46,935 nucleotides of DNA, from the IMG/VR virus record IMGVR_UViG_3300002542_000002. The stretch is one strand, 5' to 3'. The stretch is from a virus. Position numbers and translations under genes: made by a program. Below the pieces are notes generated by a model. The model did not search any database. It had not been told where the DNA came from and saw nothing but the letters and a program-made list of their open reading frames with translations. Shown piece by piece: positions 354 to 46,935 of the stretch (position 1 is its first letter; each line of letters begins with the position of its first letter).

Positions 354-1664
354 TTATGCTACTTGTTCCATAACGAAATATCTCAATGAGTCCATACAAT
401 GGTCGTTTTGCTTGAGCGGCGCATCCTCGCCTCTCTCGCTTGCTTTCGGATCCCAAACATATAAACCAAACTCTTTGATCGTTTCCTTACAATCCTCCAT
501 GACAAAGATTTGATCGTTATAAATCATATTTGCGGTTTCGGCGATCCCTTCGAGTACGTCGTTTTTCGCTGGAGTAACCGTATAGCGGCGGCGCTCAAAC
601 TCTCGAGCGAGCGCTTTAGCGGATGGATCGAGTATGATCTCGGATACCCTAACGCCTCGAGGGAGCCATTTCTCGAAATCGTCTACATACTCGGTTACAC
701 TTTTCGAGATCTTGCTCTCCCTCCCGCTATAATAGTACTCCTTGAGGATCACGAAATATTTTTTCTTCCCATCCCGGTACTCGCCGATTAAGAGGAAAAC
801 GGTAGCGTTTTGATCCCCATAGTCGCCCGATACATAGTAGCGGCGAGGCTCTCCCGGCGGTTTTTCCTTGAGTACATGCTTTTCCGGTTTGAAACATTGA
901 TAAATAACGCCGTCGGCAATAACCCATTTACCGAGGATCATTCTTTGATAACGAGCGGGGATCCCTGCATATTGCCGCTTTAGACGCTCTTTGTACTCCT
1001 CGGATAGAGCGAGGTTATCCTCAAGCGTAAACTTATGACGGCTCCAATCCTTCTTCTTTTTCTCGTTCTCTACATAGTTGGTTAAAAGCCAATGTTTCGG
1101 ATGATCCGGGTTTGTCGTCGCTAAAAGGATCGACTCCTTATACGATAAACGTCCTACTAACTCATCGAAAACCTCTTGCGGGATGAGCGAGATCTCGTCT
1201 ACGTAAGCGATCATAAGCGTCGATCCACGTACCCGGCGGATCGCATCTTTATTTTTAGCTCCGACGATAAACATCCGCCGCTTTCGAGCCTCTCCGGTTT
1301 CTCGATCGGTGTAAAAAACGTCGATATACTTGCCTTTTACATAGTGATACGATCCCTCGCCTAAAATATCCATGAAGTCATTTAGAAAGTTTCGCTCGAT
1401 TGTGTCCGGCGTTTGCCCGAGGAGCATACCGTTTCCTCTTGGGAGAGTAGTTATCTTCTCAATGAGCCAAGCTAAGGATAGAAACGTTTTTCCGGAGCGG
1501 ATCGATCCCTCCCACAAGTTAAACGGCTTATTACTCTCGAATAGCGCTTTTAACTGATTGAAGGTAAACGGCTTTATCCGGAATTGATCGAGATCCATCC
1601 CCAGCTCTTTCGCTAACTCCCTCCAGCTCGGGAGCTTCTTTTCCGGATGTATTAGCCCGATCAT
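354..1664 (-). CDS. terL: terminase large subunit (PBSX/Terminase_3-like)
   Basis: 436-aa ORF with P-loop WEGSIRSGKTFLS and Walker B-like STLMIAYVDEIS. C-terminal nuclease half (...QNDHCMDSLRYF). Lies 4 nt downstream of terS. Confidence 0.93.
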   Translation of the reverse strand: MIGLIHPEKKLPSWRELAKELGMDLDQFRIKPFTFNQLKALFESNKPFNLWEGSIRSGKTFLSLAWLIEKITTLPRGNGMLLGQTPDTIERNFLNDFMDILGEGSYHYVKGKYIDVFYTDRETGEARKRRMFIVGAKNKDAIRRVRGSTLMIAYVDEISLIPQEVFDELVGRLSYKESILLATTNPDHPKHWLLTNYVENEKKKKDWSRHKFTLEDNLALSEEYKERLKRQYAGIPARYQRMILGKWVIADGVIYQCFKPEKHVLKEKPPGEPRRYYVSGDYGDQNATVFLLIGEYRDGKKKYFVILKEYYYSGRESKISKSVTEYVDDFEKWLPRGVRVSEIILDPSAKALAREFERRRYTVTPAKNDVLEGIAETANMIYNDQIFVMEDCKETIKEFGLYVWDPKASERGEDAPLKQNDHCMDSLRYFVMEQVA

Positions 1665-1667
1665 CGC

Positions 1668-2180
1668 TTACTCCTCCTCTTGCTCGTTATCTTGATCCGG
1701 ATCCTCGCCGTTTTCAGCTTGCGCTTTTCGTAATTGAGCCTCGTAAAGTTTTCGTCCGGCTTGGATAGCGTCGGTTAGCTCTTTCATTAAGCCGCCTTTT
1801 CCGGCATCGCCTTCTCCCATAAGCTCTAAGTCGAGCTGGATAATACGAACGAGATCGAGCGGCGTTTCGATCTTGAATTTTTGAGCCTTAAAATCCTCGA
1901 TCGCTTTCGCTATCATCGCCTTAAGAAAGGTATGATATTTCGCTTTGATCTCGACGATCGTTTCGTTTGTCTTTTTCTCGAGGAGCTTAGCGTTTTCCGC
2001 ATCTCTAAGCTCGATCCGACTTTTCCAATCAAACGAAACGCTCCAATTATGGACACTCGTTAAAGAAACGTTAAACTCTTTCGCTACATCTCGGAGGTTT
2101 CGTTTATCTCCCATCGCATAGTAATATTCAAACGCCCGGCGATGTATTTCCTTTTCCTCTTTGATTAAGGAGCTAGGCAT
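1668..2180 (-). CDS. terS: terminase small subunit
   Basis: 170 aa with N-terminal HTH (RNLRDVAKEFNVSLTSVHNWSVSF), coiled-coil middle and acidic tail. Positioned directly upstream of terL. Confidence 0.8.
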   Translation of the reverse strand: MPSSLIKEEKEIHRRAFEYYYAMGDKRNLRDVAKEFNVSLTSVHNWSVSFDWKSRIELRDAENAKLLEKKTNETIVEIKAKYHTFLKAMIAKAIEDFKAQKFKIETPLDLVRIIQLDLELMGEGDAGKGGLMKELTDAIQAGRKLYEAQLRKAQAENGEDPDQDNEQEEE

Positions 2181-4031: not shown

Positions 4032-4727
4032 TTATAAGCCGAGCCGGATCTTAATCTCGTCGATAACGCTCTCGTAATCGTCGCCATGAGTCGCCTTGAT
4101 CTCTTGGATCCATGTATTATAAACGTCGGCATTTACCATAAACTCGTATTTTCCGATCTTGAAAAATACCTCTTTCGGCGGTTTTTCTTCTTGAGGCTCC
4201 TCGTATGGTAGCTCCTCCGGCTCCGGATCCTCTTTTTCGATCTCTCCCGGATCCGATCCGCCTCCCAGCTCGTCGAAATCGGAGGTATCCATCTCTAATT
4301 GATCGAGATCATCTAACCCGGCGAGCAAGCTATCGAGATCCTCCTCGTCGAAACCTGTAAGCTTTAGCTCCGGCGTTTCTAACTCTTGGACGAGTTGAGC
4401 GAGTTTATCGAGATCCCACTCCGAGCCGACTTTAGGGTTATTAAGTGTAATGTTTAACGCTTTTTCCTTCTCGAGCGGGAGATCGACTACCGATACTTTT
4501 ACCTTTTGGATCCCCTCGTCGAGATACATATAATATCTTTGATGACCGCCGACGATGTTCCCGGTACGTTTGTTCCATACGATCGGGAGTACTTCCCCAA
4601 ACTCCATAAGGGAAGCTTTTAGCTTTTCGTACCCTTTATCTCCCCGGCGGAGGATCTTTCTCGGGTTGTATTCGGCGGGTTTGAGATCTTTTATATCGAC
4701 GGTTTGCATTTCTATCGCTCTAATCAT
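4032..4727 (-). CDS. ParB N-terminal (ParB/Srx nuclease-like) domain protein with acidic C-terminal half
   Basis: 231 aa. DIKDLKPAEYNPRK ... IVGGHQRY motifs are typical of the ParB-like domain. Residues ~120-190 are strongly acidic (DEEDLDSLLAGLDDLDQLEMDTSDFDE...). Confidence 0.7.
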   Translation of the reverse strand: MIRAIEMQTVDIKDLKPAEYNPRKILRRGDKGYEKLKASLMEFGEVLPIVWNKRTGNIVGGHQRYYMYLDEGIQKVKVSVVDLPLEKEKALNITLNNPKVGSEWDLDKLAQLVQELETPELKLTGFDEEDLDSLLAGLDDLDQLEMDTSDFDELGGGSDPGEIEKEDPEPEELPYEEPQEEKPPKEVFFKIGKYEFMVNADVYNTWIQEIKATHGDDYESVIDEIKIRLGL

Positions 4728-5081: not shown

Positions 5082-5378
5082 TTAGTTTCTCTTTGTTTCA
5101 TCCTTTGTGTATTCATAGAAAATATAGGCGACTTGTTGCCATAGATCCCGCTCCCGCTTGAGTTTTCGGATCTCCTCTTTTAGTTGGTTGTTTTCGTTCA
5201 TGAGATCCATAACCTCGCCGCTATATACTTGGTACTCCTCCAGCTCGTCAAACTCCGCTAGTTTCTCCGTCGCCGCTGTTATATTTTCCGGCTCGAAAGC
5301 TTCTCCAGCGTCAAAAAATTGTAAATTGAGCGGGATCCCCTTTACTTGCCGCTCTCCAGCTTTAAAAAATTCACCCAT
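5082..5378 (-). CDS. hypothetical acidic coiled-coil protein carrying an N-terminal LNLQFF (Prp-type) motif
   Basis: 98 aa. Residues 17-23 are LNLQFFD. SD AAAGGAG 9 nt upstream. Confidence 0.65.
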   Translation of the reverse strand: MGEFFKAGERQVKGIPLNLQFFDAGEAFEPENITAATEKLAEFDELEEYQVYSGEVMDLMNENNQLKEEIRKLKRERDLWQQVAYIFYEYTKDETKRN

Positions 5379-5403
5379 CGAAAAGATCTCCTTTCTTTTG
5401 TTT

Positions 5404-5889
5404 TTAAGCCCTTCCTCGGCTCATATTTAATTGATTAAGCTCGATATGCTGGCGAGTTTGGATCTTCTTAAGGATGTTTATTTGCTCCAATATGTAAGCC
5501 CGAGCGTTTTCCCAGCGCTTGGCGTTTTTGATCCATTCCCGCTCTTTTTCTCGGTAAGGGATAAGATCGATTTGAGCTTTATACTCGGCATCCTTCGATG
5601 AGTATTTTTTGCCGTCTTTCCCTCGCCCTTCTCGGTACATAAAGTAAAACTCCGCCTCTTTTTCTTTTCTTATAGCATAAGCTCTCTCTTTCTCCTCTAA
5701 AGCGATCGCTTGTAATTGTCCGACGATATCGAGTACATGTCCGTAAGCTTGGATCTTCTCCTCGATCATCGTTTCCTCATCGAGCATCTTTGCCCGGTTA
5801 TGGACGACGATAAGCCGCTTATAAAGCTCTTGATAGTCAAGGCTAAACGTTAGCTCCGCCTCCGGGTATCGTATTTCCTCTTTATTCAT
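5404..5889 (-). CDS. hypothetical coiled-coil protein (161 aa)
   Basis: Start moved to the ATG at 5889 (MNKEEIRYPE...) with SD GGAAGGAG. The longer track ORF would overlap the RusA-like gene by >100 nt. Confidence 0.6.
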   Translation of the reverse strand: MNKEEIRYPEAELTFSLDYQELYKRLIVVHNRAKMLDEETMIEEKIQAYGHVLDIVGQLQAIALEEKERAYAIRKEKEAEFYFMYREGRGKDGKKYSSKDAEYKAQIDLIPYREKEREWIKNAKRWENARAYILEQINILKKIQTRQHIELNQLNMSRGRA

Positions 5890-6358
5890 TTCTCCCGCTC
5901 CTTCCCAATTCGTAAGGGATAACCTCGATCTCGATCCTCGGATCTTTCGGATCGATCTCGAAATCTTGGATCCGGAGGAGGATATAATAATCATCCTCCG
6001 CTATGACTCCCTTTAAAGCATCGAGTAATAGTTTCGGTACGTTATGAGTATCCCGGATCCGCTTGTCGGGAAAATAAAACCATACATCGGCATATACTTT
6101 CTCTTTCGGCGGGATCCGGTAGCCGTTTCGGTTTTTCCATGAGAGCGCCATAAGCCGCCATTTATCCCGATGAGCCTCGGCGATCTTTGAGAGCGCTCTT
6201 TGCCCGGTATTTTTCATTTTCTTTTCTTTCGGATCCCAGCGAGCGATATTTACGAAAATATGATTTTCGGTAGGAAACAATCCCTTAGAGTTTTGAGGAG
6301 TGTAAAGCTTGCCTTTATGCTCCCCAAACATCATAAGAGGCAAAACAATCCGCTCCAT
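5882..6358 (-). CDS. rusA: RusA-like Holliday junction resolvase
   Basis: 158 aa. ...DKRIRDTHNVPKLLLDALKGVIAEDDYY matches the RusA D-x-(D/H)N...K...DAL...DD signature. Confidence 0.7.
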   Translation of the reverse strand: MERIVLPLMMFGEHKGKLYTPQNSKGLFPTENHIFVNIARWDPKEKKMKNTGQRALSKIAEAHRDKWRLMALSWKNRNGYRIPPKEKVYADVWFYFPDKRIRDTHNVPKLLLDALKGVIAEDDYYILLRIQDFEIDPKDPRIEIEVIPYELGRSGRNE

Positions 6359-10301: not shown

Positions 10302-11636
10302 TTAGCTTGCTTCGCCGAAACGGCGCTCGAGGTTAAGAAACTTATTCCACTCTTTGATATAGGCGAGCTGTACCGTTCCGGTCGATCCTTCCCTATTTTT
10401 AGCGATAATAAGCTCGATTATGTTTTTATTTTCCGTATCCTTGTCGTAATAATCATCCCGGTAAAGGAAAATAACGATATCGGCATCTTGTTCGATCGAG
10501 CCGCTATCCCGGATATCCGATAGCATCGGTCGCTTATCTTGCCGCTTTTCGACTTCCCTCGAGAGCTGGGATAAGGCGATAACCGTACAATTAAGATCAT
10601 TAGCCATATTTTTAAGCGCCCGAGAGATCTCGCTTATCTCTAAGTTACGGTTTCCTTGATAGTTGCGGCTCGGTTTAATGAGCTGGAGATAGTCGATAAC
10701 TACGATATGATGTTTATCCGGATAGTCTTTCATGTTTTCCCTTACTCTCGCCCGGATCTCCTCGACGGTGATCGTACTCTCGTCGCAAATATCGAGATTT
10801 TCCTCCCATTGACTCATAACGCTAAGCGCATGAGAGTATTTCGTCCAATCCTCATCATCGAAATACTCGATCGGATTTTTTACTTTGCGTCCGTCGATAT
10901 TGCCTAAGCATGATATCATCCGGTTTGTTAATTGATCCTCGCCCATTTCCAGCGAGAAGATAGTAGCGAAAACCTCCTCATCTTTACCGAGCGATCTTTC
11001 GATAGTGTTATTAACGATATTTAAAGCGAAAGCCGTTTTCCCTACCGACGGTCGAGCGGGTACGATGATGAGCTTTTTCTTTTCCAATCCCTCGAGCATG
11101 ATATCGAGATCATTAAATCCGGTTTCGGCTCCGACTAATCCTCTTTTCATGTTTTCCATTCGACTATATTTATCGATTAAATGCTCCCTTATGGAAAAGC
11201 GTTTTCTCCGCCGCCCGGTATTCTCGATCTCCTCGATCTCTTGGCGGATTTTAGCGTCAATCTCGTCATCATCGAGGTTAGTAAGCGCCTTTTGATAAAC
11301 CTTATACTTTTCCCGCCGCTTCCAATTATCGATAACGATACCCTCGTAAAACTTGATATTAGCGGTAGTCGGTACCGAGATCATCATATCGGAGAGGTAG
11401 CTTATCCCTCCCACTTCATTAACCCGCTCTTTTGCGATCTCCGCAATCGCTACGAGATCGATCGGGATCTCTTTTCGTTGTAGCTCTCTCATCCATTTAA
11501 AAAGCTTGATATGCTTAGGATCGGAGAAATGTTCCGGCTTAATAATGAGATCGTTTATAAGATCCGGCTCGAGTAAAACCGAGCCGAGTACCATTCTTTC
11601 CGCCTCGAAATTGTAAAACATAGCGATAGCATCCAT
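10302..11636 (-). CDS. dnaB: replicative DNA helicase, DnaB family (SPP1 G40P-like)
   Basis: 444 aa. N-terminal DnaB domain (FEAERMVLGSVLLEPD), Walker A PARPSVGKTAFALN, FSLEMGEDQLTNRM and VVIDYLQLI motifs. Confidence 0.95.
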   Translation of the reverse strand: MDAIAMFYNFEAERMVLGSVLLEPDLINDLIIKPEHFSDPKHIKLFKWMRELQRKEIPIDLVAIAEIAKERVNEVGGISYLSDMMISVPTTANIKFYEGIVIDNWKRREKYKVYQKALTNLDDDEIDAKIRQEIEEIENTGRRRKRFSIREHLIDKYSRMENMKRGLVGAETGFNDLDIMLEGLEKKKLIIVPARPSVGKTAFALNIVNNTIERSLGKDEEVFATIFSLEMGEDQLTNRMISCLGNIDGRKVKNPIEYFDDEDWTKYSHALSVMSQWEENLDICDESTITVEEIRARVRENMKDYPDKHHIVVIDYLQLIKPSRNYQGNRNLEISEISRALKNMANDLNCTVIALSQLSREVEKRQDKRPMLSDIRDSGSIEQDADIVIFLYRDDYYDKDTENKNIIELIIAKNREGSTGTVQLAYIKEWNKFLNLERRFGEAS

Positions 11637-11639
11637 CTT

Positions 11640-11972
11640 TTACGCTCTCCCCTTTGCTTGCTTGATAAAGTCCGGCATACGATCCTCCGGGATGTATTTA
11701 AGCGCTCCTTTTTTCATACCCTCCAGCCGTAAAACCTCGCCTTTATCTAAGTATCCCGAGTTAGCGGCGAAAGTCGGTACTCCCCGGAGATCCGCAATAG
11801 ATGGAGGGTACTTTTCCCGCTGGATATGGTTTTTAAGGTTTTCGAGTACGGTATAAAAATCTTGATCCTTTAACATCTCGCTCCATAGGTCTACCTTTTC
11901 CTCCGTTACCTCAAACATGTCATAAGCGTTCGCTATGAGGGAGAAAAGCTTGATTGTTTCCACCCGATCCAT
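11640..11972 (-). CDS. helicase loader/inhibitor, SPP1 G39P-like
   Basis: 110 aa. ETIKLFSLIANAYDMFEVTEEKVDLWSEMLKDQDF...KYPPSIADL matches the G39P-family N-terminal pattern. Immediately upstream of dnaB. Confidence 0.8.
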   Translation of the reverse strand: MDRVETIKLFSLIANAYDMFEVTEEKVDLWSEMLKDQDFYTVLENLKNHIQREKYPPSIADLRGVPTFAANSGYLDKGEVLRLEGMKKGALKYIPEDRMPDFIKQAKGRA

Positions 11973-12897
11973 TTTTACGTACCTCCTTCTCCATCATTTC
12001 TCGGAGGAGATCATTTTTCCTTGCTCCCCGAGATTGATAGCCGCCGCTACCGTATCCCGCTCTCGCTCTCGCCTTTTTCTCAAGCTCGGCTTTCCGTTGC
12101 ATATACAAAACATCGTACTGTTTCCGGAGTTTTTCCGTACTTAGGATATTCGTTTTCCAAAAATCATGATTTTGACACCAATCGATGATAGCCGCTATCT
12201 CCTCCGGATCCCGGTTATCTCTCTCGATCATTAAACGGATCACATCCGCCCATTTTTGCGGGTTTGGTTTTTTGGCGTTAGGATTGTTTTTAAGCATCCA
12301 ATAAAAGAGCCTTGCCGCTAACTTATACTCGATATCGTCTTTTGTATAAACCCGCTTACCTTTCTTTTTCTTAGGCTTGTCCGTTTCGACGGTTTCGGTT
12401 TCCGGCGGTAAAGCTGGAGTTAGTTCTTTGTTATTTTCCTCCCCGGCTTTGATAAATTCGCTCATTTCCTCCGATACCTCCTCGTTTTGTTGCTCCGGCT
12501 CGGTATCGATCGGCTCATCATCGGTATGTAATATCTCCGGATCCGTTTGGTATTCGTTCCATTGTAAGATAGTTACGATCGAGTACTTTCGGCTCGGAGC
12601 GGTTTCGATTTGAATGTTACCCATTTTCTCGAGTTTTTTAAGCCAATTCCATAGAGTCGTATCGCTTACCCGATTTTTCGGCGCTAAGCCGTCGTTATAT
12701 TCGTTAAAAAGGGATTTTCTCCCGGTTACTAACTGTCCGGCTTTAAGATCGACTGTTTCCCCCTCCCATTCGATCGATCTTTCCGAGTGAGAGGCTTTCA
12801 TGAGGAGTAAGATCCATAAGCGGAGGAGATCCGGATCTCTGAAAACCTCGCTATATTGTAATTTTCTATGTAGCCGAAACCATCCCTTAGCGCTCAT
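11920..12897 (-). CDS. replication initiation / replisome organiser protein (DnaD-like C-terminal domain)
   Basis: 325 aa. Winged-helix-like N-terminus (WFRLHRKL...VTGRKSL...TLWNWLKKLEKMG), acidic linker, and C-terminal DnaD/phage-conserved domain (KLAARLFYWMLKNNP...WADVIRLMIERD...IIDWCQNHDFW). Confidence 0.75.
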   Translation of the reverse strand: MSAKGWFRLHRKLQYSEVFRDPDLLRLWILLLMKASHSERSIEWEGETVDLKAGQLVTGRKSLFNEYNDGLAPKNRVSDTTLWNWLKKLEKMGNIQIETAPSRKYSIVTILQWNEYQTDPEILHTDDEPIDTEPEQQNEEVSEEMSEFIKAGEENNKELTPALPPETETVETDKPKKKKGKRVYTKDDIEYKLAARLFYWMLKNNPNAKKPNPQKWADVIRLMIERDNRDPEEIAAIIDWCQNHDFWKTNILSTEKLRKQYDVLYMQRKAELEKKARARAGYGSGGYQSRGARKNDLLREMMEKEVRKNGSGGNNQAFLPHSERL

Positions 12898-13741: not shown

Positions 13742-14722
13742 CTAAAGTAAATTTTTTTCTCGAAACTCTTTTATCAGATAGGCGAGCGTTGTTCTATGTA
13801 TCCCCAGCTCCTCCGCTATCTCTCCCTTTGTTTTGCCGCTCGCTAAAAGATCCTTGATTTGCTCCGGCTTGATCCGGTTTCTAGGGAGCCGCAAAGTATG
13901 AGGGATACCGAGTTTTTTCCGGTACTTTGTAATGGTTGTCGGATATAATCCGTACATTTCCGCTATTTCTTGATCGGTATAGTTTGGTACTAACTCGAGC
14001 ATTTTTTCCCGAGTTAATCCCAGCTCCTCCGGTTTCGGTAGCTTTTTCGGTTTAACGATCCCCCATTCTTTCTTTAACTTTAAAAGCGACGAGGTAGAGA
14101 TATCCCATAGCTCGGCGATCTCCTTATCGGTTAGCCCTTTCTTTTTGGAAAGGTATTTGTATTCGTCGATCGTAAACTTTGCTTTGATCGTATGATCGGT
14201 CGCCTCGATCCCCCATTTTTTCCGCCGCTTTTGGATCGTTACCTTAGACACGCCGTACATGTCCGCTATTTCTTGATCCGTATAGATCTTACTAAGCTCC
14301 TCGAGCTTTTCTTTTGTCATATCCTTAAGAACGAGCCTCGGCTTGATAAACTCCTCGACTTTCGTCAATCCCCATGCTTGCTTACGCCGGGTTAAAGTGA
14401 TCCGGCTTATACCGTATTTCTCCCGGATCTCGGCATCGGTCATATTTTGACTTTTAAGCTTGAGGTACTTGTCTTTTGTTAGCTCCGGCGCTTTAAAATG
14501 GTTATTCGCCATCGCTCCGTATTCGATGATCCCTCCGAGCGCCCGGATCTTTCTCCCGATTTTACATTCATTCATGCAATAAAACTGCATTTCGTAATAT
14601 GTTTGCCCTTGCTCTCTTAATTCCGTTTTGATTGTGCATTTTTTACAATAGTTTTCCTCGAGTTTGCCGATCTCCTTTACCGCTTCTTTCGCCGTTTTTA
14701 TTTTTCTAGGCTTTTTCCCCAT
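13742..14722 (-). CDS. zinc-finger protein with five tandem HTH repeats
   Basis: 326 aa. N-terminal CKKC...CMNEC. Then 5 units of ~50 aa: MTDAEIREKYGISRITLTRRKQAWGL, YTDQEIADMYGVSKVTIQKRRKKWGI, LTDKEIAELWDISTSSLLKLKKEWGI, YTDQEIAEMYGLYPTTITKYRKKLGI, KTKGEIAEELGIHRTTLAYLIKEF. Confidence 0.75.
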   Translation of the reverse strand: MGKKPRKIKTAKEAVKEIGKLEENYCKKCTIKTELREQGQTYYEMQFYCMNECKIGRKIRALGGIIEYGAMANNHFKAPELTKDKYLKLKSQNMTDAEIREKYGISRITLTRRKQAWGLTKVEEFIKPRLVLKDMTKEKLEELSKIYTDQEIADMYGVSKVTIQKRRKKWGIEATDHTIKAKFTIDEYKYLSKKKGLTDKEIAELWDISTSSLLKLKKEWGIVKPKKLPKPEELGLTREKMLELVPNYTDQEIAEMYGLYPTTITKYRKKLGIPHTLRLPRNRIKPEQIKDLLASGKTKGEIAEELGIHRTTLAYLIKEFREKNLL

Positions 14723-14781: not shown

Positions 14782-15720
14782 TTACTCGAAAAATACCTCC
14801 TTGCCGTTATACTCGACGGTTTTCCCGGTCGATACGTCCGTTACCGTTATCGTATTTTGAGCGCTCTCCTCTTGGATCTCTTTAAGCTCCTCCGGCTCTC
14901 CCTGCTTGTCCGGTTTTTGCGCTGGAGTTTGATCCTCGGCTCGTTTTGCTTGCTCCGCTTGTTTTGCCTTTTCCGCTTGCTTAGCTTGGATCTTACCGAG
15001 GAGGATTTGATCTATCCAATCGAGATCTTTACCCTCCGCTTGTTTCTTAGCGATATACTCTTTCAATCCCTCGAGGGATCCGTTATTTAATACTTTCCAT
15101 TTTGCCTCAATGCTAGAGATAGAGGCTTTCGGTTTTTGTTGTTTAGTTTGTGTCTTTTTGTTGCCGCTGGAGCCGCTTTTCGTTTGTGATCCTTTGCCGC
15201 TGGATCCTTTAGCCGCTTTCGGCTCCTCGAAAACTTGCTCGCTATCTCCATACTCCGGATCATTCTCTTTCTCCCCGGTCGAGATGAGAAAGTTATTAAT
15301 GAGATAGTACTTAATACATCCGGAGTATGCTTTATAAAGTCCTTTGTCGCCTGTATCGGTAGCGACTCCTTTCGATCGTTTAACGTCCATATATCCGGTA
15401 TCGTTATCCGTTAGGATAAACTCCATCGTAACAGTATGGAGCCATGCTTTCCCTTGTCGAGTTTGTACCTCCTCCTTTTCGTCCGAGATTAACTCTACAT
15501 CGAGCGTTAATCCCGCCTCGCTTAATAAGGATCTTACTCCCTCTTTGATATCCGACTCGGTAGAATATTCGTATTTATGGAAGTCATTCCATCCATTTTT
15601 AGCGATCCGTTGAATAGATCCGACGACTTTCGCTTTTTTCTTTTGGAGCTTAGCTCTTAGCTCGAGGATTTTTAAACGTTCCTCGAGCGGCATCGCTTTT
15701 ATTTCTTCGACTGTATACAT
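14782..15720 (-). CDS. erf: ERF-family single-strand annealing recombinase
   Basis: 312 aa. ...IAKNGWNDFHKYEYSTESDIKEGVRSLLSEAGL...GDKGLYKAYSGCIKYYLINNFLISTGE..DPE matches the ERF core. Low-complexity K/Q/A-rich C-terminal half. Confidence 0.75.
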   Translation of the reverse strand: MYTVEEIKAMPLEERLKILELRAKLQKKKAKVVGSIQRIAKNGWNDFHKYEYSTESDIKEGVRSLLSEAGLTLDVELISDEKEEVQTRQGKAWLHTVTMEFILTDNDTGYMDVKRSKGVATDTGDKGLYKAYSGCIKYYLINNFLISTGEKENDPEYGDSEQVFEEPKAAKGSSGKGSQTKSGSSGNKKTQTKQQKPKASISSIEAKWKVLNNGSLEGLKEYIAKKQAEGKDLDWIDQILLGKIQAKQAEKAKQAEQAKRAEDQTPAQKPDKQGEPEELKEIQEESAQNTITVTDVSTGKTVEYNGKEVFFE

Positions 15721-15881
15721 TACTTCCCGCCTCCCAGCATCGCTTTATTTAAAAGTTTGTCCAATTCTTGCGATAAGCGGATCGTTTCCGGATGATTTAA
15801 GCCGTATTTTTGCCCGGCGGCGATCATCTCCTCCCGCTTACGCTCGATCTCCTTTCTAAGCTTTCCTAATCTTTTACTCAT
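15720..15881 (-). CDS. Spo0E-family aspartyl-phosphate phosphatase-like protein (53 aa)
   Basis: Hand-translated (below track threshold): MSKRLGKLRKEIERKREEMIAAGQKYGLNHPETIRLSQELDKLLNKAMLGGGK. Carries the Spo0E signature SQELD in a two-helix context. TAATG overlap with the ERF start. Confidence 0.7.
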   Translation of the reverse strand: MSKRLGKLRKEIERKREEMIAAGQKYGLNHPETIRLSQELDKLLNKAMLGGGK

Positions 15882-15970: not shown

Positions 15971-16001
15971 AAAAAAATAGCTTACGATTTACTCGTAAGC
16001 T
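15971..16001 (-). terminator. strong rho-independent terminator after the ATPase gene
   Basis: Minus strand reads AGCTTACGA-GTAAA-TCGTAAGCT followed by TTTTTTT. Confidence 0.85.
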
Positions 16002-16002
16002 T

Positions 16003-18171
16003 TCAATCTTGCATAGACGGAGGCGGAGCCATTCGAGCGACGAAAGGCTTTAGATAATCGCCGCCGGAGCGGATAACATTAATCGCATAATGTCTTTTCG
16101 TTTTGAGCGCCTCCTCTACCGTTATCGGCGCTATTTCTTGAGCGAGATCCCGGTACGTTTTCGCCGAGCTGGAGTATAAATGGTAGTGAGGGAGAGCGCT
16201 CTTAATGATATCTCGGAGATCCGGATCGATTTGTTTCCATTCGTGAAAGAGCCAAACGTACCCGATCCGCCATTTTCTCGACTCTACCGAGGCGCTTTTC
16301 CATATCCGAGCGCTCTTACTGTATTGATGAGGCTCGTCGGCAATAACGAAAAACGGAAACTGATTTTCCGGCTTTCGGAGAGTCATAGCGAGATCGATTT
16401 TTGTACTTAAGAGAGCGCCGATAATGTTTACTCCCTCGGTACCGACGATACTCTTAGGTACATCGATAACGATCGCTTTCTTTTGACTCATAAGATCAAC
16501 GAGATCGATCCCATCATCCGCCTCGAAACACTCGGCGAGAAACTCATCTCCGAGGATTGTATCGAAACGGTTAAGGATCGGCTCAAGGATTTGCCGCCGC
16601 CGTCCGTCGCTATGCTTATGGAGATCCTCGAGAGTCGTTTTATGGATACCCGGAGAAATCCGTTTAAGCGCCTCCTCCCGCTCTTTTTTATCCTCAAGGA
16701 TAGAAAGTACCTCGGAAAGCTTATCGCCTCTCATAGCCATAACAGCGGCTCTTAAATAGCGGCTCGTTTGAGCGCCTGCCTCGTCGGTCGAGTCGGCAAA
16801 AAAGGAGAGGATCGTATTAGCGAGCCTACCTCTCGCTTTAACGCTATGCTTAACCTCTCTCCAATCGAGCGAGATCGGTTTTTCGCCGATCCGGATCCTT
16901 ACGATCTTATCCGCCGGGAGCTTACTCTCCAGCTCGTCGCCAATCTCCCCCTTTGCTGGATCGATACATAAAGCGCCGAAACCATTTAATACCGCTTGAT
17001 ACATAAAGTTAGCGCCAAAGCCTCGGGTTTTCCCCGATCCCATCCCTCCGATAACGATCCGAGGTAGACATAACTCATCCCAATCATTAACCGGGAAGTA
17101 TACCTTTTCCTCTTTTCCTTTGATCGTATGAGTACCCAGCCATAAACCGCCTTTAAGCAAGCGATCCGGGAGCGGCGTTTCTAAGCTGGAAACTCGCTCG
17201 ATGTTGTATTTTTCTTGGAGCGGGTTTGTAGGCATTAAAAGCAATCGAGAAAACTCCGGGATACTCATATAATCCTTTTGTAATTTAAAGCCGCTTTTAC
17301 GCTCTTTCATAAGTTTAAATCCCCTTTCTGTATCGATCGTTTTATCGGTTAGATAATTATCCCCATCGAGCGAACGAAACGCCGTATAAATCATCCGAGC
17401 GAGATCCGCCGATCGCTGCTTATTTTTTGAAATGATCCCGATCCGGATCGTTACATCGTAAGCCTCGCCTCTTGCTTTATGGATTGTTTCGTTTCTAAGG
17501 TATCCATCCCGGAGTATTTGAGATCGCTCCGCTTGATCGAGATCGATCGGATCCTCCAGCTTGCCGCCTGTTAGCTCGACGATCGTTTCGACGGCTCCGA
17601 GTACCGCTTTCGTCGTAAAGAGGAGAGCGGTTTTCCCGAAATACGCTTTATCGAGGCGGATCTTTCTCGGCAAGGATCCCTTTTTAAACTGTTTATAAGC
17701 CTCTACCGCTCCGATATACCAATCATTAGCGGCGGGGATCGCTAAGTATTGCAAATAAATCTCCTCGTCATCGGACATCATAAGGGTAGTATCCAATATA
17801 GCGGATAGGAGAGCGTTCGTTCTCTTATCCACTCTTAGGGATAAAAAGTAATGGTTAGCATACATTAGCTCGCTCATAAAGGTAGGCTTTTTAACGATCG
17901 GATCCTCAACTTTGCGGATCGTCGCTTTCGGAAACGTACTTTCGATCGCTTTAACGACGATATCCTCGCTCTCGTCTTTAACGGTAACGATAAAGCGGGT
18001 ACCTTTTTTCTTGAGGATCGTTTCAAACGAAAGGAAAGGATGTTTCTCGAAACGCTTTTTCTCCGGATCCCAGCGAGTTAAAAGCGGCTTATACGTTGCT
18101 AAGGAGCGAGCGAGCGTTTCGACTTGAGAGTTATCGATCCGATCATCGGGGATGATTTGTAAATGGATCAT
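16003..18171 (-). CDS. P-loop ATPase, HerA/FtsK/VirD4 (type IV coupling protein)-like, no TM segment
   Basis: 722 aa. Walker A VIGGMGSGKTRG, Walker B-like FPFFVIADEPHQY, followed by SVESRKWRIGYVWLFHEWKQ (TraG-D_C/HerA-like arrangement). The ~350-aa N-terminal region has no motif I recognise. Confidence 0.6.
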   Translation of the reverse strand: MIHLQIIPDDRIDNSQVETLARSLATYKPLLTRWDPEKKRFEKHPFLSFETILKKKGTRFIVTVKDESEDIVVKAIESTFPKATIRKVEDPIVKKPTFMSELMYANHYFLSLRVDKRTNALLSAILDTTLMMSDDEEIYLQYLAIPAANDWYIGAVEAYKQFKKGSLPRKIRLDKAYFGKTALLFTTKAVLGAVETIVELTGGKLEDPIDLDQAERSQILRDGYLRNETIHKARGEAYDVTIRIGIISKNKQRSADLARMIYTAFRSLDGDNYLTDKTIDTERGFKLMKERKSGFKLQKDYMSIPEFSRLLLMPTNPLQEKYNIERVSSLETPLPDRLLKGGLWLGTHTIKGKEEKVYFPVNDWDELCLPRIVIGGMGSGKTRGFGANFMYQAVLNGFGALCIDPAKGEIGDELESKLPADKIVRIRIGEKPISLDWREVKHSVKARGRLANTILSFFADSTDEAGAQTSRYLRAAVMAMRGDKLSEVLSILEDKKEREEALKRISPGIHKTTLEDLHKHSDGRRRQILEPILNRFDTILGDEFLAECFEADDGIDLVDLMSQKKAIVIDVPKSIVGTEGVNIIGALLSTKIDLAMTLRKPENQFPFFVIADEPHQYSKSARIWKSASVESRKWRIGYVWLFHEWKQIDPDLRDIIKSALPHYHLYSSSAKTYRDLAQEIAPITVEEALKTKRHYAINVIRSGGDYLKPFVARMAPPPSMQD

Positions 18172-18590
18172 TGTTTGCTCATCTCCTTGCCGATCTCGAC
18201 GAGGATCCCCATTAAAGCGGGAGCTAATTGTAAGCCGATATATCCTAATCCGGCGTATTTCATCATCGAGATACCTCTCGATTTTTGCCCGGTCATTATG
18301 AGGAGAAATCCGGCGGTTATCATTAAGAAAGCTACCGGGTACGATATCCCTTGTAATAGCTGGATAAGCGGATCGAAAGCGTGTATTATCCTTTCTTGCA
18401 AACTTGCCGCTAAAGTAACGGATCCTCCCATCGGATCAAAAACAGCGCATACGGCGGATAAACCGAGCAAGGAGTAGCTAATGATATCCTCGATCCTTTC
18501 CTTTTTGGATCTTCTCTCCTTTTGCTTATAAGATCCGTCCATAAAATCCCGGAAAGAGATCGTTTCCGTTTTGTTTAACACTTTAAGCAT
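18168..18590 (-). CDS. polytopic small membrane protein (140 aa), translationally coupled to the ATPase
   Basis: Basic N-terminus, then three hydrophobic segments (IISYSLLGLSAVCAVF; ISYPVAFLMITAGFLLIM; AGLGYIGLQLAPALMGILV). 4-nt overlap with the downstream ATPase gene. Confidence 0.65.
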   Translation of the reverse strand: MLKVLNKTETISFRDFMDGSYKQKERRSKKERIEDIISYSLLGLSAVCAVFDPMGGSVTLAASLQERIIHAFDPLIQLLQGISYPVAFLMITAGFLLIMTGQKSRGISMMKYAGLGYIGLQLAPALMGILVEIGKEMSKQ

Positions 18591-18640
18591 GTTTTAACCC
18601 TCCCCTTAAAATACGTCCGGATGAAAATCCCGGACATAAT

Positions 18641-18660
18641 TATTTATTTATTTATTTATT
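18641..18660. repeat. (TATT)5 microsatellite
   Basis: tatttatttatttatttatt read directly. Confidence 0.9.
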
Positions 18661-18682
18661 AATTCTTTATATATAATTCTTG

Positions 18683-18858
18683 TTTGTGCAAAAAATGTTG
18701 TCAAAAACAGTTGTCAAAAATCACTTGTTGAGGTTGTTAAAAATCCGAAACGAAAAACGGCGGATCCCTTGATACTCTAGGGATTAAAGGAGGTATTAGG
18801 TTGTCAAAGATCACGAAAGAAGGTTGTCAAAAAGGGTTGCAAAAAAGGTTGTCAAAAA
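18683..18858. repeat. array of eight same-orientation 11-bp iterons GTTGTCAAAAA (two clusters of four)
   Basis: Perfect copies at 18697-18707, 18710-18720, 18823-18833 and 18848-18858. One-mismatch copies at 18733-18743 and 18800-18810. Degenerate copies at about 18683-18695 and 18836-18846. Centre-to-centre spacings are 12-13 or 23 nt. The complement of each copy reads TTTTTGACAAC. Confidence 0.85.
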
Positions 18859-18970
18859 TGATTTTATTTCCCGATCATTTCCCGATCGAAAAGGAGGCGG
18901 TAAACATGGTACCTCTCGGGTACATCCTTGTAATCATCGGCGGCATTATCGTTATGGTTAAAGCCTTTTA

Positions 18971-19189
18971 TTAATCGTCTAACTTAAACTTGATCCCTCC
19001 GGATCCAGCCGAGCGAATCACTTTAGAAGATGGAGCGGGAGAGGCGGCTTTCCTTACCGCCCGATCCCGCTCGATTAACCCTTTTACATACGCCGAAAAG
19101 TTTTTAAATTGTAGCGTATACCGATAAAGCTCCGCTTGAGCTGGATCCTCGAGATTAAAGGCGACTCCTCGAGTTTTTATAGCGCTCAC
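18971..19189 (-). CDS. ribbon-helix-helix (CopG/Arc/ParG/ParR-like) DNA-binding protein
   Basis: 72 aa. TRGVAFNLEDPAQAELYRYTLQFKNFSAYVKGLIERD fits a beta-strand/helix/helix RHH pattern. GTG start overlaps the upstream stop (GTGA). Confidence 0.55.
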   Translation of the reverse strand: MSAIKTRGVAFNLEDPAQAELYRYTLQFKNFSAYVKGLIERDRAVRKAASPAPSSKVIRSAGSGGIKFKLDD

Positions 19190-19314
19190 TTTTTAGCCTC
19201 CTCTTTGATTTTCTTAGCGATAGCGACGGCGATCGCTTGATCTTTCGCCAAAAATTTACGAGGTTTTTTCTCGTTTTTAATTTTGATCGTGTAAGTTTTT
19301 AACATCTTGATCCT
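19186..19314 (-). CDS. small basic protein (42 aa)
   Basis: Hand-translated: MLKTYTIKIKNEKKPRKFLAKDQAIAVAIAKKIKEEAKK. SD GGAGAGG upstream. Coupled to the RHH gene. Confidence 0.45.
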   Translation of the reverse strand, partial: RIKMLKTYTIKIKNEKKPRKFLAKDQAIAVAIAKKIKEEAKK

Positions 19315-19323
19315 CTCCTTAAC

Positions 19324-19341
19324 ATGTAATTTTGATTACAT
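19324..19341. promoter_or_regulatory. palindromic operator ATGTAAT-TTTG-ATTACAT in the cassette leader
   Basis: Perfect 7-bp inverted arms between a TATAAT -10 (complement of 19365-19370) and the SD of the 42-aa ORF. The 9-mer ACATGTAAT recurs at 19775-19783. Confidence 0.5.
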
Positions 19342-19528
19342 TACATATTACTACCGGGTTAGCGATTATATACCTAAAAAAAAGATAAAAATTTTTTCGG
19401 ATCTCTTTCTCTAATTATCCCGGATACCGCTCTCGCTTCAAAAATCGCCGTATAAGGAGCGAAAAGAGGCTCCCGAGGGTATTTATACCCGAGAGCCGAA
19501 AACGTCAAAAATACGCCTTTTTAGGCAT

Positions 19529-19554
19529 AAAAAAAGAGCCGTTTACTCCGGCTC
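19529..19554 (-). terminator. rho-independent terminator overlapping the stop of the Zn-ribbon gene
   Basis: Minus strand reads GAGCCGG-AGTAAA-CGGCTC followed by TTTTTTT. Confidence 0.75.
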
Positions 19555-19737
19555 CTCATTCTCCATTAAATACCCGCATCCTTCACATTTTTTACCTCCC
19601 GGGATGATATGATCCTCATACTCGATGATCCCACAATCCAAACATAAATAAATAATGACTCCGGAGCGGCGTTTGAGTTGCTTACCGATCCGCCGCCGGA
19701 TATTTTGCCGCTCTTTTTCCGTATATTTGATACTCAT
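19543..19737 (-). CDS. hypothetical zinc-ribbon protein (64 aa)
   Basis: Start at ATG 19737 with SD AAGGAGAGG. CLDC...CEGC. Confidence 0.6.
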   Translation of the reverse strand: MSIKYTEKERQNIRRRIGKQLKRRSGVIIYLCLDCGIIEYEDHIIPGGKKCEGCGYLMENEEPE

Positions 19738-23483: not shown

Positions 23484-23840
23484 GTGGCGACTACTTCTAA
23501 AGCGATCAAATTAAACGATAATTTTACTTATCCGGGTACCGGATACCTTAACACATCCGAGGATTATCTTAACGTTTATGCTACTTGGGAAACGCCTTAT
23601 AATACTTATGTTTACGCTAAAATGACACTCCAGCGCTACGAGAATGGAGCTTGGAAAAACATCGAAACGAAAGGCGCTTACGCTTTGTACTCTCACACTC
23701 AACGGTATCATGCTAATGTTCAGTTTACGAACATAGCCAAGAAAAACGCTAAAATGAGGGTAAAAATTAACTTACATGACGGTTGGGATCCGAGTAGCCC
23801 TTCGCTACAAACAGCTTACGGCGCTACTTGGACGAGATAA
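23484..23840 (+). CDS. hypothetical Tyr/Thr/Asn/Trp-rich protein (118 aa); the only plus-strand gene (moron-like)
   Basis: GTG start 8 nt after GGAGG (23471-23475). Own terminator at 23854-23887. Composition and GATC density differ from the rest of the genome. Confidence 0.6.
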   Translation: MATTSKAIKLNDNFTYPGTGYLNTSEDYLNVYATWETPYNTYVYAKMTLQRYENGAWKNIETKGAYALYSHTQRYHANVQFTNIAKKNAKMRVKINLHDGWDPSSPSLQTAYGATWTR

Positions 23841-46834: not shown

Positions 46835-46935
46835 CCAATATTCGGATTTTTATTTTTCTGCTTGGTATCCCGCCGTCGGACGAGTCGCATTTTCGGCTCA
46901 TTTTTACGAATGTTTACCGACGAGTAGCGGGATAA
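46835..46935. repeat. terminal direct repeat, right copy (identical to 1-101)
   Basis: Identical 101 nt. Contains most of repeat unit R1. Confidence 0.95.

Follow-up and report, generated by a model that had tools for sequence, protein, structure and literature searches.

A pair of genes like the one analysed here is known from phage SPP1, in which early small membrane proteins are encoded directly 5' of a large soluble ATP-binding protein, gp32. SPP1 gp32 is non-essential, HHpred ties its C-terminus to TrwB, VirB4 and FtsK, and together with gp31.1/gp31.2 it has been proposed to form a trans-membrane translocon "whose role remains to be established" (Godinho et al. 2018, PMC6316719). We analysed a related cassette in the IMG/VR virus record IMGVR_UViG_3300002542_000002, a stretch of 46,935 nucleotides that we call the window. 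Here a minus-strand operon carries, from 5' to 3', a TATAAT box, an operator-like element, open reading frames (ORFs) of 39 and 72 aa, a 380-nt gap, and ORFs of 140 and 722 aa. The 72-aa product has features of ribbon-helix-helix (RHH) proteins, the 140-aa product is a membrane protein that resembles VirB2/TrbC pilins, and the 722-aa product is a soluble ATPase. Our preferred reading, to which we give an even chance of being right, is that of an autonomous, self-regulated early operon for a two-component membrane machine derived from type IV secretion or conjugation. The machine would be accessory and linked to spore-forming hosts, and short direct repeats (iterons) in the 380-nt gap would form a lineage-specific operator array.

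The SPP1 and window ATPases are homologous (92% of the query aligned at 23% identity, tblastn E 1e-29), and gp31.1 aligns with the profile of the window membrane protein (hhalign E 1e-4, probability 58%). SPP1 differs in having two membrane proteins and an 836-aa ATPase, and the SPP1 region examined contains no TTTTTGACAAC iterons. The set VirB2-VirB3-VirB4 (R388 TrwL/TrwM/TrwK) likewise has a pilin-type gene directly 5' of, and coupled to, the gene for a soluble two-domain ATPase of ~700–800 aa, and VirB4 acts on membrane-embedded pilin. The window differs from this set in its Gram-positive phage context, in having no VirB3, VirB5, VirB6, VirB8 or VirB10 partners and in giving no sequence-level VirB4 match. 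The modelled window ATPase resembles coupling proteins (TrwB/VirD4/PcfC) in its nucleotide-binding domain with a helical insertion, and NCBI names several homologues of the window ATPase [quoted passage not shown]. However, the window ATPase has a 340-aa soluble N-terminal domain in place of the membrane anchor, and the window contains no relaxase or oriT. A further counterpart lies on the Clostridium botulinum plasmid pCLK (CLK_RS19275/19280), where the gene for a 133-aa "TrbC/VirB2 family protein" (PGAP) overlaps that for an 800-aa ATP-binding protein. The ATPases are 29% identical over 99% of the query and the membrane proteins align with an hhalign probability of 99%. The pCLK module differs in that it resides on a 267-kb plasmid, has no RHH-like gene or iterons annotated nearby, and has hypothetical neighbours.

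The ATPase and its membrane partner

The ATPase is translationally coupled to the membrane protein through an ATGA overlap and has no transmembrane segment (maximum KD19 1.43), in agreement with an earlier sequence-only reading of this DNA. All motifs named in that reading are found: GGMGSGKT at residues 375–382, FFVIADEPHQY at 607–617 and RKW...LFHEWKQ at 632–647. The protein is a full-length member of PHROG 5156, a family of unknown function (E 1e-213). An AlphaFold2 model built from 35 homologues is confident (predicted local distance difference test, pLDDT, 88.7). It shows an N-terminal α/β domain that opens with a β-α-β unit (~1–340) and a RecA-like core in which an all-helical insertion (~438–560) separates Walker A (375–382) from Walker B (607–613). 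An E-x-RK motif follows Walker B at 630–634.

Foldseek against the PDB returns R388 TrwK/VirB4, HerA, TrwB, the DndH C-domain, DotL and Cagβ, all with probability 1.0. The top matches are full-length TrwK chains (E 5e-12) aligned over ~830–870 columns, longer than the motor domain alone, with a global TM-score of ~0.3 and a root-mean-square deviation of 12–14 Å. TrwB reaches a target TM-score of ~0.6 over ~400–440 columns. A 50-member family profile compared with PDB sequences finds HerA first (E 4.6e-6), followed in decreasing order by DptH, IcmO/DotL, TrwB and VirB4, and places the family motif iivEsRKfrl/vESRKwr over IAREGRKFGV of HerA (4d2i). Structure and profile searches thus agree with the HerA/FtsK/VirD4-like class first proposed, and the Walker A, Walker B and E-x-RK motifs of the FtsK-HerA superfamily are all present. 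Sequence markers of the individual families are not found. The protein has no hydrophobic segment that could serve as the N-terminal transmembrane anchor of VirD4/TraG/TrwB, and no gamma-type winged helix was detected in it. The Pfam model FtsK_SpoIIIE matches neither the window protein nor any of 50 relatives, and there is no FtsK chain among the top 50 Foldseek matches. The VirB4 models CagE_TrbE_VirB and AAA_10 do not match the window protein, although AAA_10 matches one of the 50 family members; TrwB_AAD_bind weakly matches seven of the 50, again not the window protein. From sequence and model, the ATPase is best placed as a distinct family inside the FtsK-HerA superfamily that shows the sequence marks of none of the described families. 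It resembles VirB4 in its modelled architecture (a soluble N-terminal domain plus motor) and VirD4/HerA in its motor.

Several other assignments were rejected. Since DnaB and TerL are encoded elsewhere in the window (Table 1), the 722-aa protein is neither the replicative helicase nor the terminase, and its model, which the sequence-only reading had allowed might turn out to be a replicative helicase or packaging ATPase, falls into the FtsK-HerA class. The annotation as ABC transporter "MsbA" in D6E, PBC5 and JL is a misannotation: the protein lacks an ABC signature, and its fold places it with the FtsK-HerA class. The Pfam label PF26449 (PF26449.1), precomputed for some homologues (P0023 and others), was not reproduced by our Pfam scans.

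The membrane protein belongs to PHROG 5422 and has hydrophobic segments at residues 33–51, 78–101 and 113–133, consistent with the three transmembrane helices predicted earlier. Its N-terminus is predicted to be cytoplasmic and carries a conserved, charged motif, K-TI-F-DFMDGSYK. A signal-anchor-like segment ends at TLAAS; 19 relatives retain the A-x-(A/G/S) site and the two helices. This is the VirB2/TrbC layout of a leader, a signal-peptidase-type site (here predicted) and two hydrophobic helices. The Pfam model T4SS_pilin matches with E 7e-5 and TrbC/VirB2 with E 0.05; among the homologues, 17 of 19 match T4SS_pilin and nine of 19 TrbC at E < 0.01. JGI labels a 99%-identical protein "Type IV secretion system pilin". 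The model of the membrane protein is of medium confidence, and only helices 73–99 and 103–139 are confident (pLDDT 80–93). The TP-84 homologue, TP84_47, was detected by mass spectrometry in purified virions (PMC5889276).

Distribution among phages and plasmids

A tblastn search with the window ATPase finds 144 phage records, and three divergent queries (window, pCLK and SPO1) return ~145 phage records each. Identity is 50–55% in D6E, TP-84, the 022DV001 group and others, and 21–26% over nearly the full length in SPO1 gp27.4, CP-51, SPP1 gp32, GBK2, phage G, 0305phi8-36 and the Tsamsa group. A profile search gives 5,356 clusters (50% identity) at E ≤ 1e-3. The membrane-protein/ATPase pair (PHROG 5422 + 5156) is a conserved feature of ~145 isolated phages and also of plasmids from Bacillus and Clostridium. 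TP-84, vB_BpsM-61 and PBC5 show the gene order of the window: small protein, membrane protein, ATPase. Compared loci of relatives are given L-numbers below, where L001 is TP-84, L002 vB_BpsM-61 and L009 SPO1. The sequence-only reading had found no match to a described phage system. In fact the pair is widespread and its SPP1 counterpart has been discussed as a translocon; what stands is that no function has been demonstrated, and in a literature search for a proven function of proteins like gp32, the 2018 paper on the SPP1 genome was the sole result.

The hosts of the phage records are Bacillus, Geobacillus, Lysinibacillus, Brevibacillus, Alicyclobacillus, Clostridium and Terrisporobacter, plus one Microcystis phage. 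Phages of Staphylococcus, Streptococcus, Lactococcus, Listeria and Enterococcus are absent from the records returned by the three queries. Chromosomal loci of the close subfamily belong to Bacillaceae, Paenibacillaceae, Tumebacillus and Clostridium. The phage homologues are almost only from endospore-formers. The exception is Microcystis phage MaeS (MT362618.1, 73561–75462; 23% identity over 88% of the pCLK query), whose stated host is not an endospore-forming Firmicute.

Besides the VirB2-like gene, neighbours of the ATPase gene are regulators and recombination genes. The next gene beyond the cassette terminator in the window encodes a Spo0E-like sporulation-regulatory phosphatase (Pfam E 1e-18), and the same neighbour occurs in L004/L095/L096, L006/L007, L088/L092–L094, L089 and vB_BpsM-61. 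In L009, the gene directly 3' of gp27.4, gp27.3 (5127–5951), encodes a Replic_Relax protein (PF13814, E 3e-12), and CampHawk annotates its counterpart as "plasmid replication-relaxation protein". This neighbour in the SPO1 group hints at DNA processing beside the motor; the window has no such gene. Loci L092–L094, from Logan and NCBI assemblies of the Bacillus cereus group, have 63% ATPase identity and are stand-alone contigs of 50,597–50,635 bp in many isolate assemblies. A resolvase gene lies on the opposite strand, 1.2 kb 5' of their cassette. Together, the stand-alone contigs and the resolvase gene suggest that these relatives exist in a plasmid-like or carrier state. When the B. cereus-group cassette was compared by megablast with collections of plasmids and phages, no match was obtained.

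Control region and iterons

The cassette had been described as an autonomous unit between two terminators, and hairpins with T runs do stand at both minus-strand borders (Table 1). The upstream one (9-bp stem, five GC pairs) ends the preceding gene, and a terminator is found at the matching position upstream of the cassette in relatives too. The TATAAT box is also present where first placed, with A/T-rich sequence upstream. It was recognised by reading the sequence; having no good −35, it was not called by a consensus promoter scan. A GGxATAxxA −10-like box occupies the equivalent position in L005, L006, TP-84, vB_BpsM-61 and PBC5. Between the −10 box and the first ribosome-binding site lies the operator-like element ATGTAATGTAAT-N4-ATTACAT. 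It had been read as a perfect palindrome (19324–19341), which is correct for 7 + 7 complementary bases (ATGTAAT/ATTACAT); the 4-nt centre is non-symmetric and the whole is part of a larger element. ATGTAATGTAA/TTACAT half-sites occur at the equivalent position in L005, L006, TP-84, vB_BpsM-61, PBC5, L091, L092 and L095. Three upstream elements are common to all lineages examined, in the same order: the terminator, the −10-like box, and ATGTAATGTAA or inverted TTACAT...ATGTAA. The ATGTAATGTAA element sits immediately 5' of the first ribosome-binding site in every one of them.

The first ORF encodes a basic protein (13 K+R) of 39 aa, not 42 as first counted. It is coupled to the next gene through GTGA, resembles TP84_44 in a by-eye comparison, and has no family match in Pfam and PHROG scans. 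The GTG start of the 72-aa ORF overlaps the stop of this ORF. The 72-aa protein matches PHROG 8966/4223, and its gene lies directly 5' of the membrane-protein gene in every TP-84-like lineage examined (TP-84, vB_BpsM-61, PBC5, L005, L006, L091 and L092). It has a conserved pattern, KT(K/R)GVAFNL-DP-Q--L--Y-----NFSAYVK-LI, with a GGIKF tail. Features compatible with an RHH fold are the strand motif KTRGVAFNL, a helix that starts with D-P, and NFS capping helix 2 (NFSAYVK); such a fold is plausible. Because the putative DNA-reading strand and the ATGTAA element are both conserved and the iterons are not, we infer that this element, and not the iteron array, is the operator of the 72-aa protein, which is presumed to be an autoregulator. 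In TP-84-like siphophages the membrane-protein/ATPase pair always follows the promoter, the ATGTAATGTAA operator, the small basic ORF, the RHH-like protein and an opposite-strand micro-ORF.

This micro-ORF lies in the 380-nt gap, which the sequence-only reading had described as holding iterons; the length and the iterons are confirmed, and the gap is not otherwise empty. The micro-ORF has a strong Shine-Dalgarno sequence, AAAGGAGG, and encodes a 22-aa peptide with a single transmembrane segment, MVPLGYILVIIGGIIVMVKAFY. It runs convergent to the RHH-like gene and abuts its stop, and is the sole conserved plus-strand gene recognised in the region. A 118-aa plus-strand ORF at 23484–23840 also has a PHROG match. 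Peptides of 19–26 aa with their own ribosome-binding site occupy the equivalent place in L005, L006, L091, L092, L095, TP-84, vB_BpsM-61 and PBC5, and share the pattern M-x-(I/L/V)-G-(Y/W)-x-L-(V/I)-x-x-G-...-K. Similar peptides are encoded 5' of the ATPase gene in 11 GTDB prophage loci. TP84_46, annotated on the other strand over the micro-ORF site in TP-84, is probably spurious. The micro-ORF is antisense to any read-through from the operon promoter. What is conserved is a gene for a 20–32-aa transmembrane peptide with a Shine-Dalgarno sequence, antisense to operon read-through; in type I toxin-antitoxin loci, an antisense transcript overlaps the gene of a small hydrophobic peptide. The placement would suit a switch resembling a type I toxin, or else a small membrane component that works with the machine.

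We scanned the whole 46.9-kb window for TTTTTGACAAC, allowing ≤2 mismatches, and compared the result with shuffles. The window contains 29 matches against 10.6 ± 3.0 in shuffles; seven of these are in the cassette, all on the minus strand (18697–18858), and at ≤1 mismatch there is no other site in the 46.9-kb window outside the region. A degenerate copy, TTTTTTGCACA, brings the total to eight in two clusters, as described earlier, with four minus-strand copies of the consensus TTTTTGACAAC(C) in each. In cluster 1 the copies are spaced 12, 13 and 23 bp from start to start, a layout shared with L005, L006, L007 and L095. Cluster 2, with three good copies and the degenerate one, is kept in L004–L007 and L095. 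Close relatives keep the two-cluster layout and the ~56-nt spacer carrying TATCAAGGG; the spacer motif TATCAAGGGAT is also present in L005, L006 and L092. The iteron core varies to TGACA(A/G)C in L092 (B. cereus group) and to TTTTTCGCAACC in L089. Contigs L004 (1–50), L089 and L090 (1–40) begin within cluster 2. The likely reason is that de Bruijn assembly fails at tandem 12–13-bp repeats, and the contig starts are probably not ends of genomes. Tandem TTTTGACAAC was considered as the same element elsewhere in IMG/VR and rejected. None of 74 loci (L014–L087) has cassette genes in the fetched stretch, so the motif is unrelated or a chance occurrence. Several of these contigs carry two pairs ~210–270 bp apart, and the TTTTGACAAC loci are probably a different element with a similar core.

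The outermost iterons overlap promoter-like sites. A site for the membrane-protein/ATPase genes (TTGACA, 17-nt spacer, AAGAAT) agrees with the consensus at 10 of 12 positions, and its −35-like TTGACA falls within the last full iteron. TTGACA-N17-(T)AAGAAT is kept in L004, L005, L006 and L095. Read on the plus strand, the outermost copy of cluster 1 gives a −35-like box, TTGTCA, facing the micro-ORF. An operator-like tandem 11-bp repeat, ATTTCCCGATC, stands between the ribosome-binding site of the micro-ORF and cluster 1 and is kept as two copies of CCGGGAAATA in L005, L006 and L095. Directly downstream of the iterons, ~45 nt are almost pure A/T (GC 0.25 over 18600–18699). The 5' leader of the membrane-protein gene then carries a conserved hairpin or palindrome, GTCCGGGAT-N4-ATCCGGAC, of which eight pairs are kept in five relatives, with no compensatory changes among these five.

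The iterons are absent from TP-84, vB_BpsM-61, PBC5 and L091, the last judged from the sequence upstream of its membrane-protein gene, though all four keep the RHH-like, membrane-protein and ATPase genes in order. In these lineages only ~60–80 nt separate the micro-ORF from the membrane-protein gene. Because the iterons are missing where the cassette persists, they are not a core part of the conserved machine. They appear as an insertion specific to the sub-lineage of the window, in the divergent control region between micro-ORF and membrane-protein gene. Most likely they are a lineage-specific operator array whose outermost copies supply the −35-like boxes of both promoters.

The window as a whole is a complete, Bacillus-type phage. 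Its first 101 bases recur at its end, which indicates a circularly closed genome of 46,834 bp. It encodes terminase, portal, tail and lysis genes and a complete replication module (DnaD-like organiser, G39P-like loader, DnaB and SSB), plus Erf and RusA. No integrase or recombinase was found among the ORFs scanned, in line with the integrase-less phage first described. A protein with a ParB N-terminal domain (PHROG 620 "ParB-like partition protein", E 2e-40; Pfam ParB_N below cut-off) is also encoded, distant from the iterons and unrelated to the cassette. A gene for a 326-aa protein has an N-terminal zinc finger (zf-C2HCIx2C) and ~5 tandem helix-turn-helix (HTH) repeats that match HTH_23 and Sigma70_r4. 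Genes of this multi-HTH type (~290–330 aa, zinc finger, three to five HTH repeats) occupy the interval from erf to the replication genes in all iteron-bearing lineages with downstream sequence, and are absent from the four iteron-less lineages within the regions seen. The co-occurrence is suggestive, and the multi-HTH protein is at least as good a candidate iteron binder as the RHH-like protein. A tandem-HTH protein that would read tandem TTGACA-containing repeats is an attractive pairing.

The iteron block might instead be the replication origin of the phage, bound by the multi-HTH protein or the DnaD-like organiser and placed inside the cassette by coincidence. The eight iterons are followed by the A/T stretch, a possible unwinding element, and the whole window contains no second iteron array. 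The multi-HTH gene precedes the replication genes (a winged-HTH protein, the DnaD-like organiser, the G39P-like loader and DnaB). TP-84 and vB_BpsM-61, which do not have these iterons, carry other arrays near their replication genes, TGTCACCCC x5 (L001 802–950) and TCATGGTGACAC x4 (L002 1102–1190). Both arrays are likely origins; they are flanked by erf and the replication genes, at about the place taken by the multi-HTH gene in the window lineage. However, the window array is 5–6 kb away from the replication genes and exactly between two divergent genes, with promoter-like boxes in its outer copies; the membrane-protein gene has its −10 box and leader within the A/T stretch; and PBC5 and L091 have no iteron array in the region examined. 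We consider an origin unlikely. Given the A/T stretch, the sole array in the genome and the other arrays in TP-84 and vB_BpsM-61, it stays a serious rival for the iteron block alone.

The sequence-only reading compared the layout to plasmid centromeres. In such a partition cassette of an episomal prophage, the iterons would be the centromere, the RHH-like protein the adaptor, and the ATPase and its membrane partner would segregate or anchor genomes. Partition loci such as R1 parC/ParR/ParM and pSM19035 omega/delta do have a small RHH-type gene beside short direct-repeat clusters that overlap promoters, and in the window two oriented clusters adjoin the RHH-like gene. The absence of an integrase, the ATPase homologues on Bacillus and Clostridium plasmids, and the iteron-bearing stand-alone contigs of ~50.6 kb in the B. 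cereus group, near a resolvase gene, would also fit. The analogy is weakened in that the iterons do not travel with the adaptor and NTPase genes: most cassette relatives do not have the repeats, as the four iteron-less lineages illustrate. The outermost iterons overlap promoter-like boxes, and the array co-occurs with the multi-HTH gene. The conserved strand residues of the RHH-like protein track the ATGTAA operator and not the variable iterons. In addition, the NTPase is of another class (not ParA, ParM or TubZ) and has a membrane partner, and the pair is present in SPP1, described as a lytic phage. A partition role is therefore improbable.

Table 1 Coordinates of features in the window
Feature	Position	Strand	Description
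Upstream terminator-like hairpin + T run	19533–19557	−	upstream border of the unit
TATAAT −10 box	19365–19370	−	operon promoter
Operator-like element	19324–19346	−	ATGTAATGTAAT-N4-ATTACAT
Basic ORF	19186–19305	−	39 aa
RHH-like ORF	18971–19189	−	72 aa
380-nt gap	18591–18970		iterons and micro-ORF
Micro-ORF	18906–18974	+	22 aa
Tandem 11-bp repeat	18866–18887		ATTTCCCGATC x2; strand unassigned
Iteron cluster 1	18800–18858	−	four TTTTTGACAAC(C) copies
Spacer motif	18764–18774	−	TATCAAGGGAT, in 56-nt inter-cluster spacer
Iteron cluster 2	18685–18743	−	three good copies, one degenerate
Degenerate eighth iteron	~18685–18695	−	TTTTTTGCACA
Promoter-like site	18676–18704	−	for membrane-protein/ATPase genes
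A/T-rich stretch	18635–18680		~45 nt
Leader hairpin or palindrome	18614–18634	−	GTCCGGGAT-N4-ATCCGGAC
VirB2/TrbC-pilin-like membrane protein	18168–18590	−	140 aa
Soluble ATPase	16003–18171	−	722 aa
Downstream terminator-like hairpin + T run	15979–16001	−	ends operon
Spo0E-like phosphatase gene	15720–15881	−	first gene past cassette terminator
Multi-HTH protein gene	13742–14722	−	326 aa
DnaB	10302–11636		
DnaB, G39P-like loader, DnaD-like organiser	10302–12897		
ParB N-terminal-domain protein	4032–4727	−	
TerL	354–1664		
TerS/TerL	354–2180		
Terminal identity	1–101, 46835–46935		101 identical bases

Proposed mechanism and its rivals

In the preferred reading of a membrane machine derived from type IV secretion or conjugation, the RHH-like protein would bind the conserved operator and thereby autoregulate the operon. 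The ATPase would form a ring and attach to the membrane protein at its conserved cytoplasmic N-terminus. ATP hydrolysis would then serve to extract pilin-like subunits and assemble them into an envelope-spanning structure, in the manner of VirB4. Alternatively, it may drive a DNA or protein substrate through the membrane, in the manner of VirD4 or FtsK. The role of the machine would be accessory and would relate to the biology of hosts that form endospores.

A number of results weigh against this reading. With VirB3, VirB6, VirB8 and relaxase genes all missing, known parts do not suffice to build a channel. The pilin assignment of the membrane protein rests on Pfam scores below the curated cut-off (23.2 bits against 26.6 for T4SS_pilin), hhalign of its profile to R388 TrwL is not significant, and Foldseek with its medium-confidence model returned random helical bundles only and was uninformative. 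The window ATPase has no Pfam or NCBIfam match and no sequence-level membership in the VirB4, VirD4, FtsK or HerA families. Comparisons by hhalign to the single sequences of PrgJ, TrwK, PcfC and TrwB are not significant (probability <1% for PrgJ and TrwK). Homology of its N-terminal domain to VirB4 is unproven because the global TM-score against full-length VirB4 is low. The 72-aa ORF is confirmed and its sequence pattern fits an RHH protein, but searches gave no confirmation of the fold: there is no Pfam match, and 6- and 40-member profiles found no RHH among PDB sequences. Finally, common descent confounds the co-occurrence of iterons and the multi-HTH gene, and the recognition helices of the multi-HTH protein show no informative change in L089, whose iteron core differs.

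A sequence-directed DNA pump would use the same proteins differently, with a membrane-anchored ATPase that reads the oriented iterons and moves phage DNA into the forespore or a neighbouring cell. Streptomyces TraB reading clt and FtsK or SpoIIIE reading KOPS or SRS would be its analogues, as each combines a motor gene of the FtsK-HerA class with nearby, uniformly oriented short repeats. The motor of the window is of this class, and the iterons adjoin its gene in one orientation. The near-restriction of phage homologues (from the three divergent queries) and chromosomal loci to endospore-formers, the Spo0E-like gene next downstream in the window and several relatives, and the Replic_Relax neighbour in SPO1 would also be in keeping with a pump. 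However, the window ATPase differs from these translocases in having no FtsK_SpoIIIE domain, gamma domain or N-terminal transmembrane helices, and there is no polytopic channel protein. The repeats are lineage-specific, and since they are missing from most family members they cannot be a general recognition site. The host range may reflect only gene flow within Bacillales and Clostridia. We think that such a pump has little chance of being the right explanation.

A conflict module for superinfection exclusion, defence or anti-defence, in which the complex and a type I toxin-like micro-peptide would block competing phage or plasmid DNA or kill the cell, is very doubtful: the SPP1 counterpart is early and non-essential, the unit is moron-like with its own terminators, the small hydrophobic peptide is antisense to operon read-through as in type I toxin-antitoxin loci, and HerA- and DndH-type motors are common in defence systems, but defence-system membership was rejected for want of a PADLOC match, the cassette has no nuclease or other effector domain, and its conservation extends to strictly lytic phages of widely differing type.

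More speculatively, the cassette could be a minimal phage-borne descendant of a conjugation machine for endospore-forming hosts. It would act either as a septum-anchored forespore DNA pump with the iterons as loading site or as a two-protein engine that builds a pilus, and the micro-peptide would be a switch. We regard this as a long shot. An extracellular polymer from a pilus-building engine would account for the co-purification of TP84_47, the membrane-protein homologue, with TP-84 virions.

The gene pair itself is already known and uncharacterised. As far as we found, there is so far no description of the anatomy of this operon or its conserved operator, of the micro-protein encoded antisense to it, of the lineage-specific iterons and their link to the multi-HTH gene, or of the restriction to endospore-formers. 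The defined operon with its conserved operator, the unannotated micro-protein, the lineage-specific iterons that track the multi-HTH gene, and the narrow host range offer handles for experiments. A VirB2-like protein paired with a VirB4/VirD4-like ATPase, without other secretion parts, recurs in SPP1, SPO1, the jumbo phage G, the thermophilic TP-84 and C. botulinum toxin plasmids. Should the module prove to transport DNA or to build a filament, no smaller derivative of type IV secretion would be known, and it would also add a new aspect to the biology of phages in sporulating bacteria.

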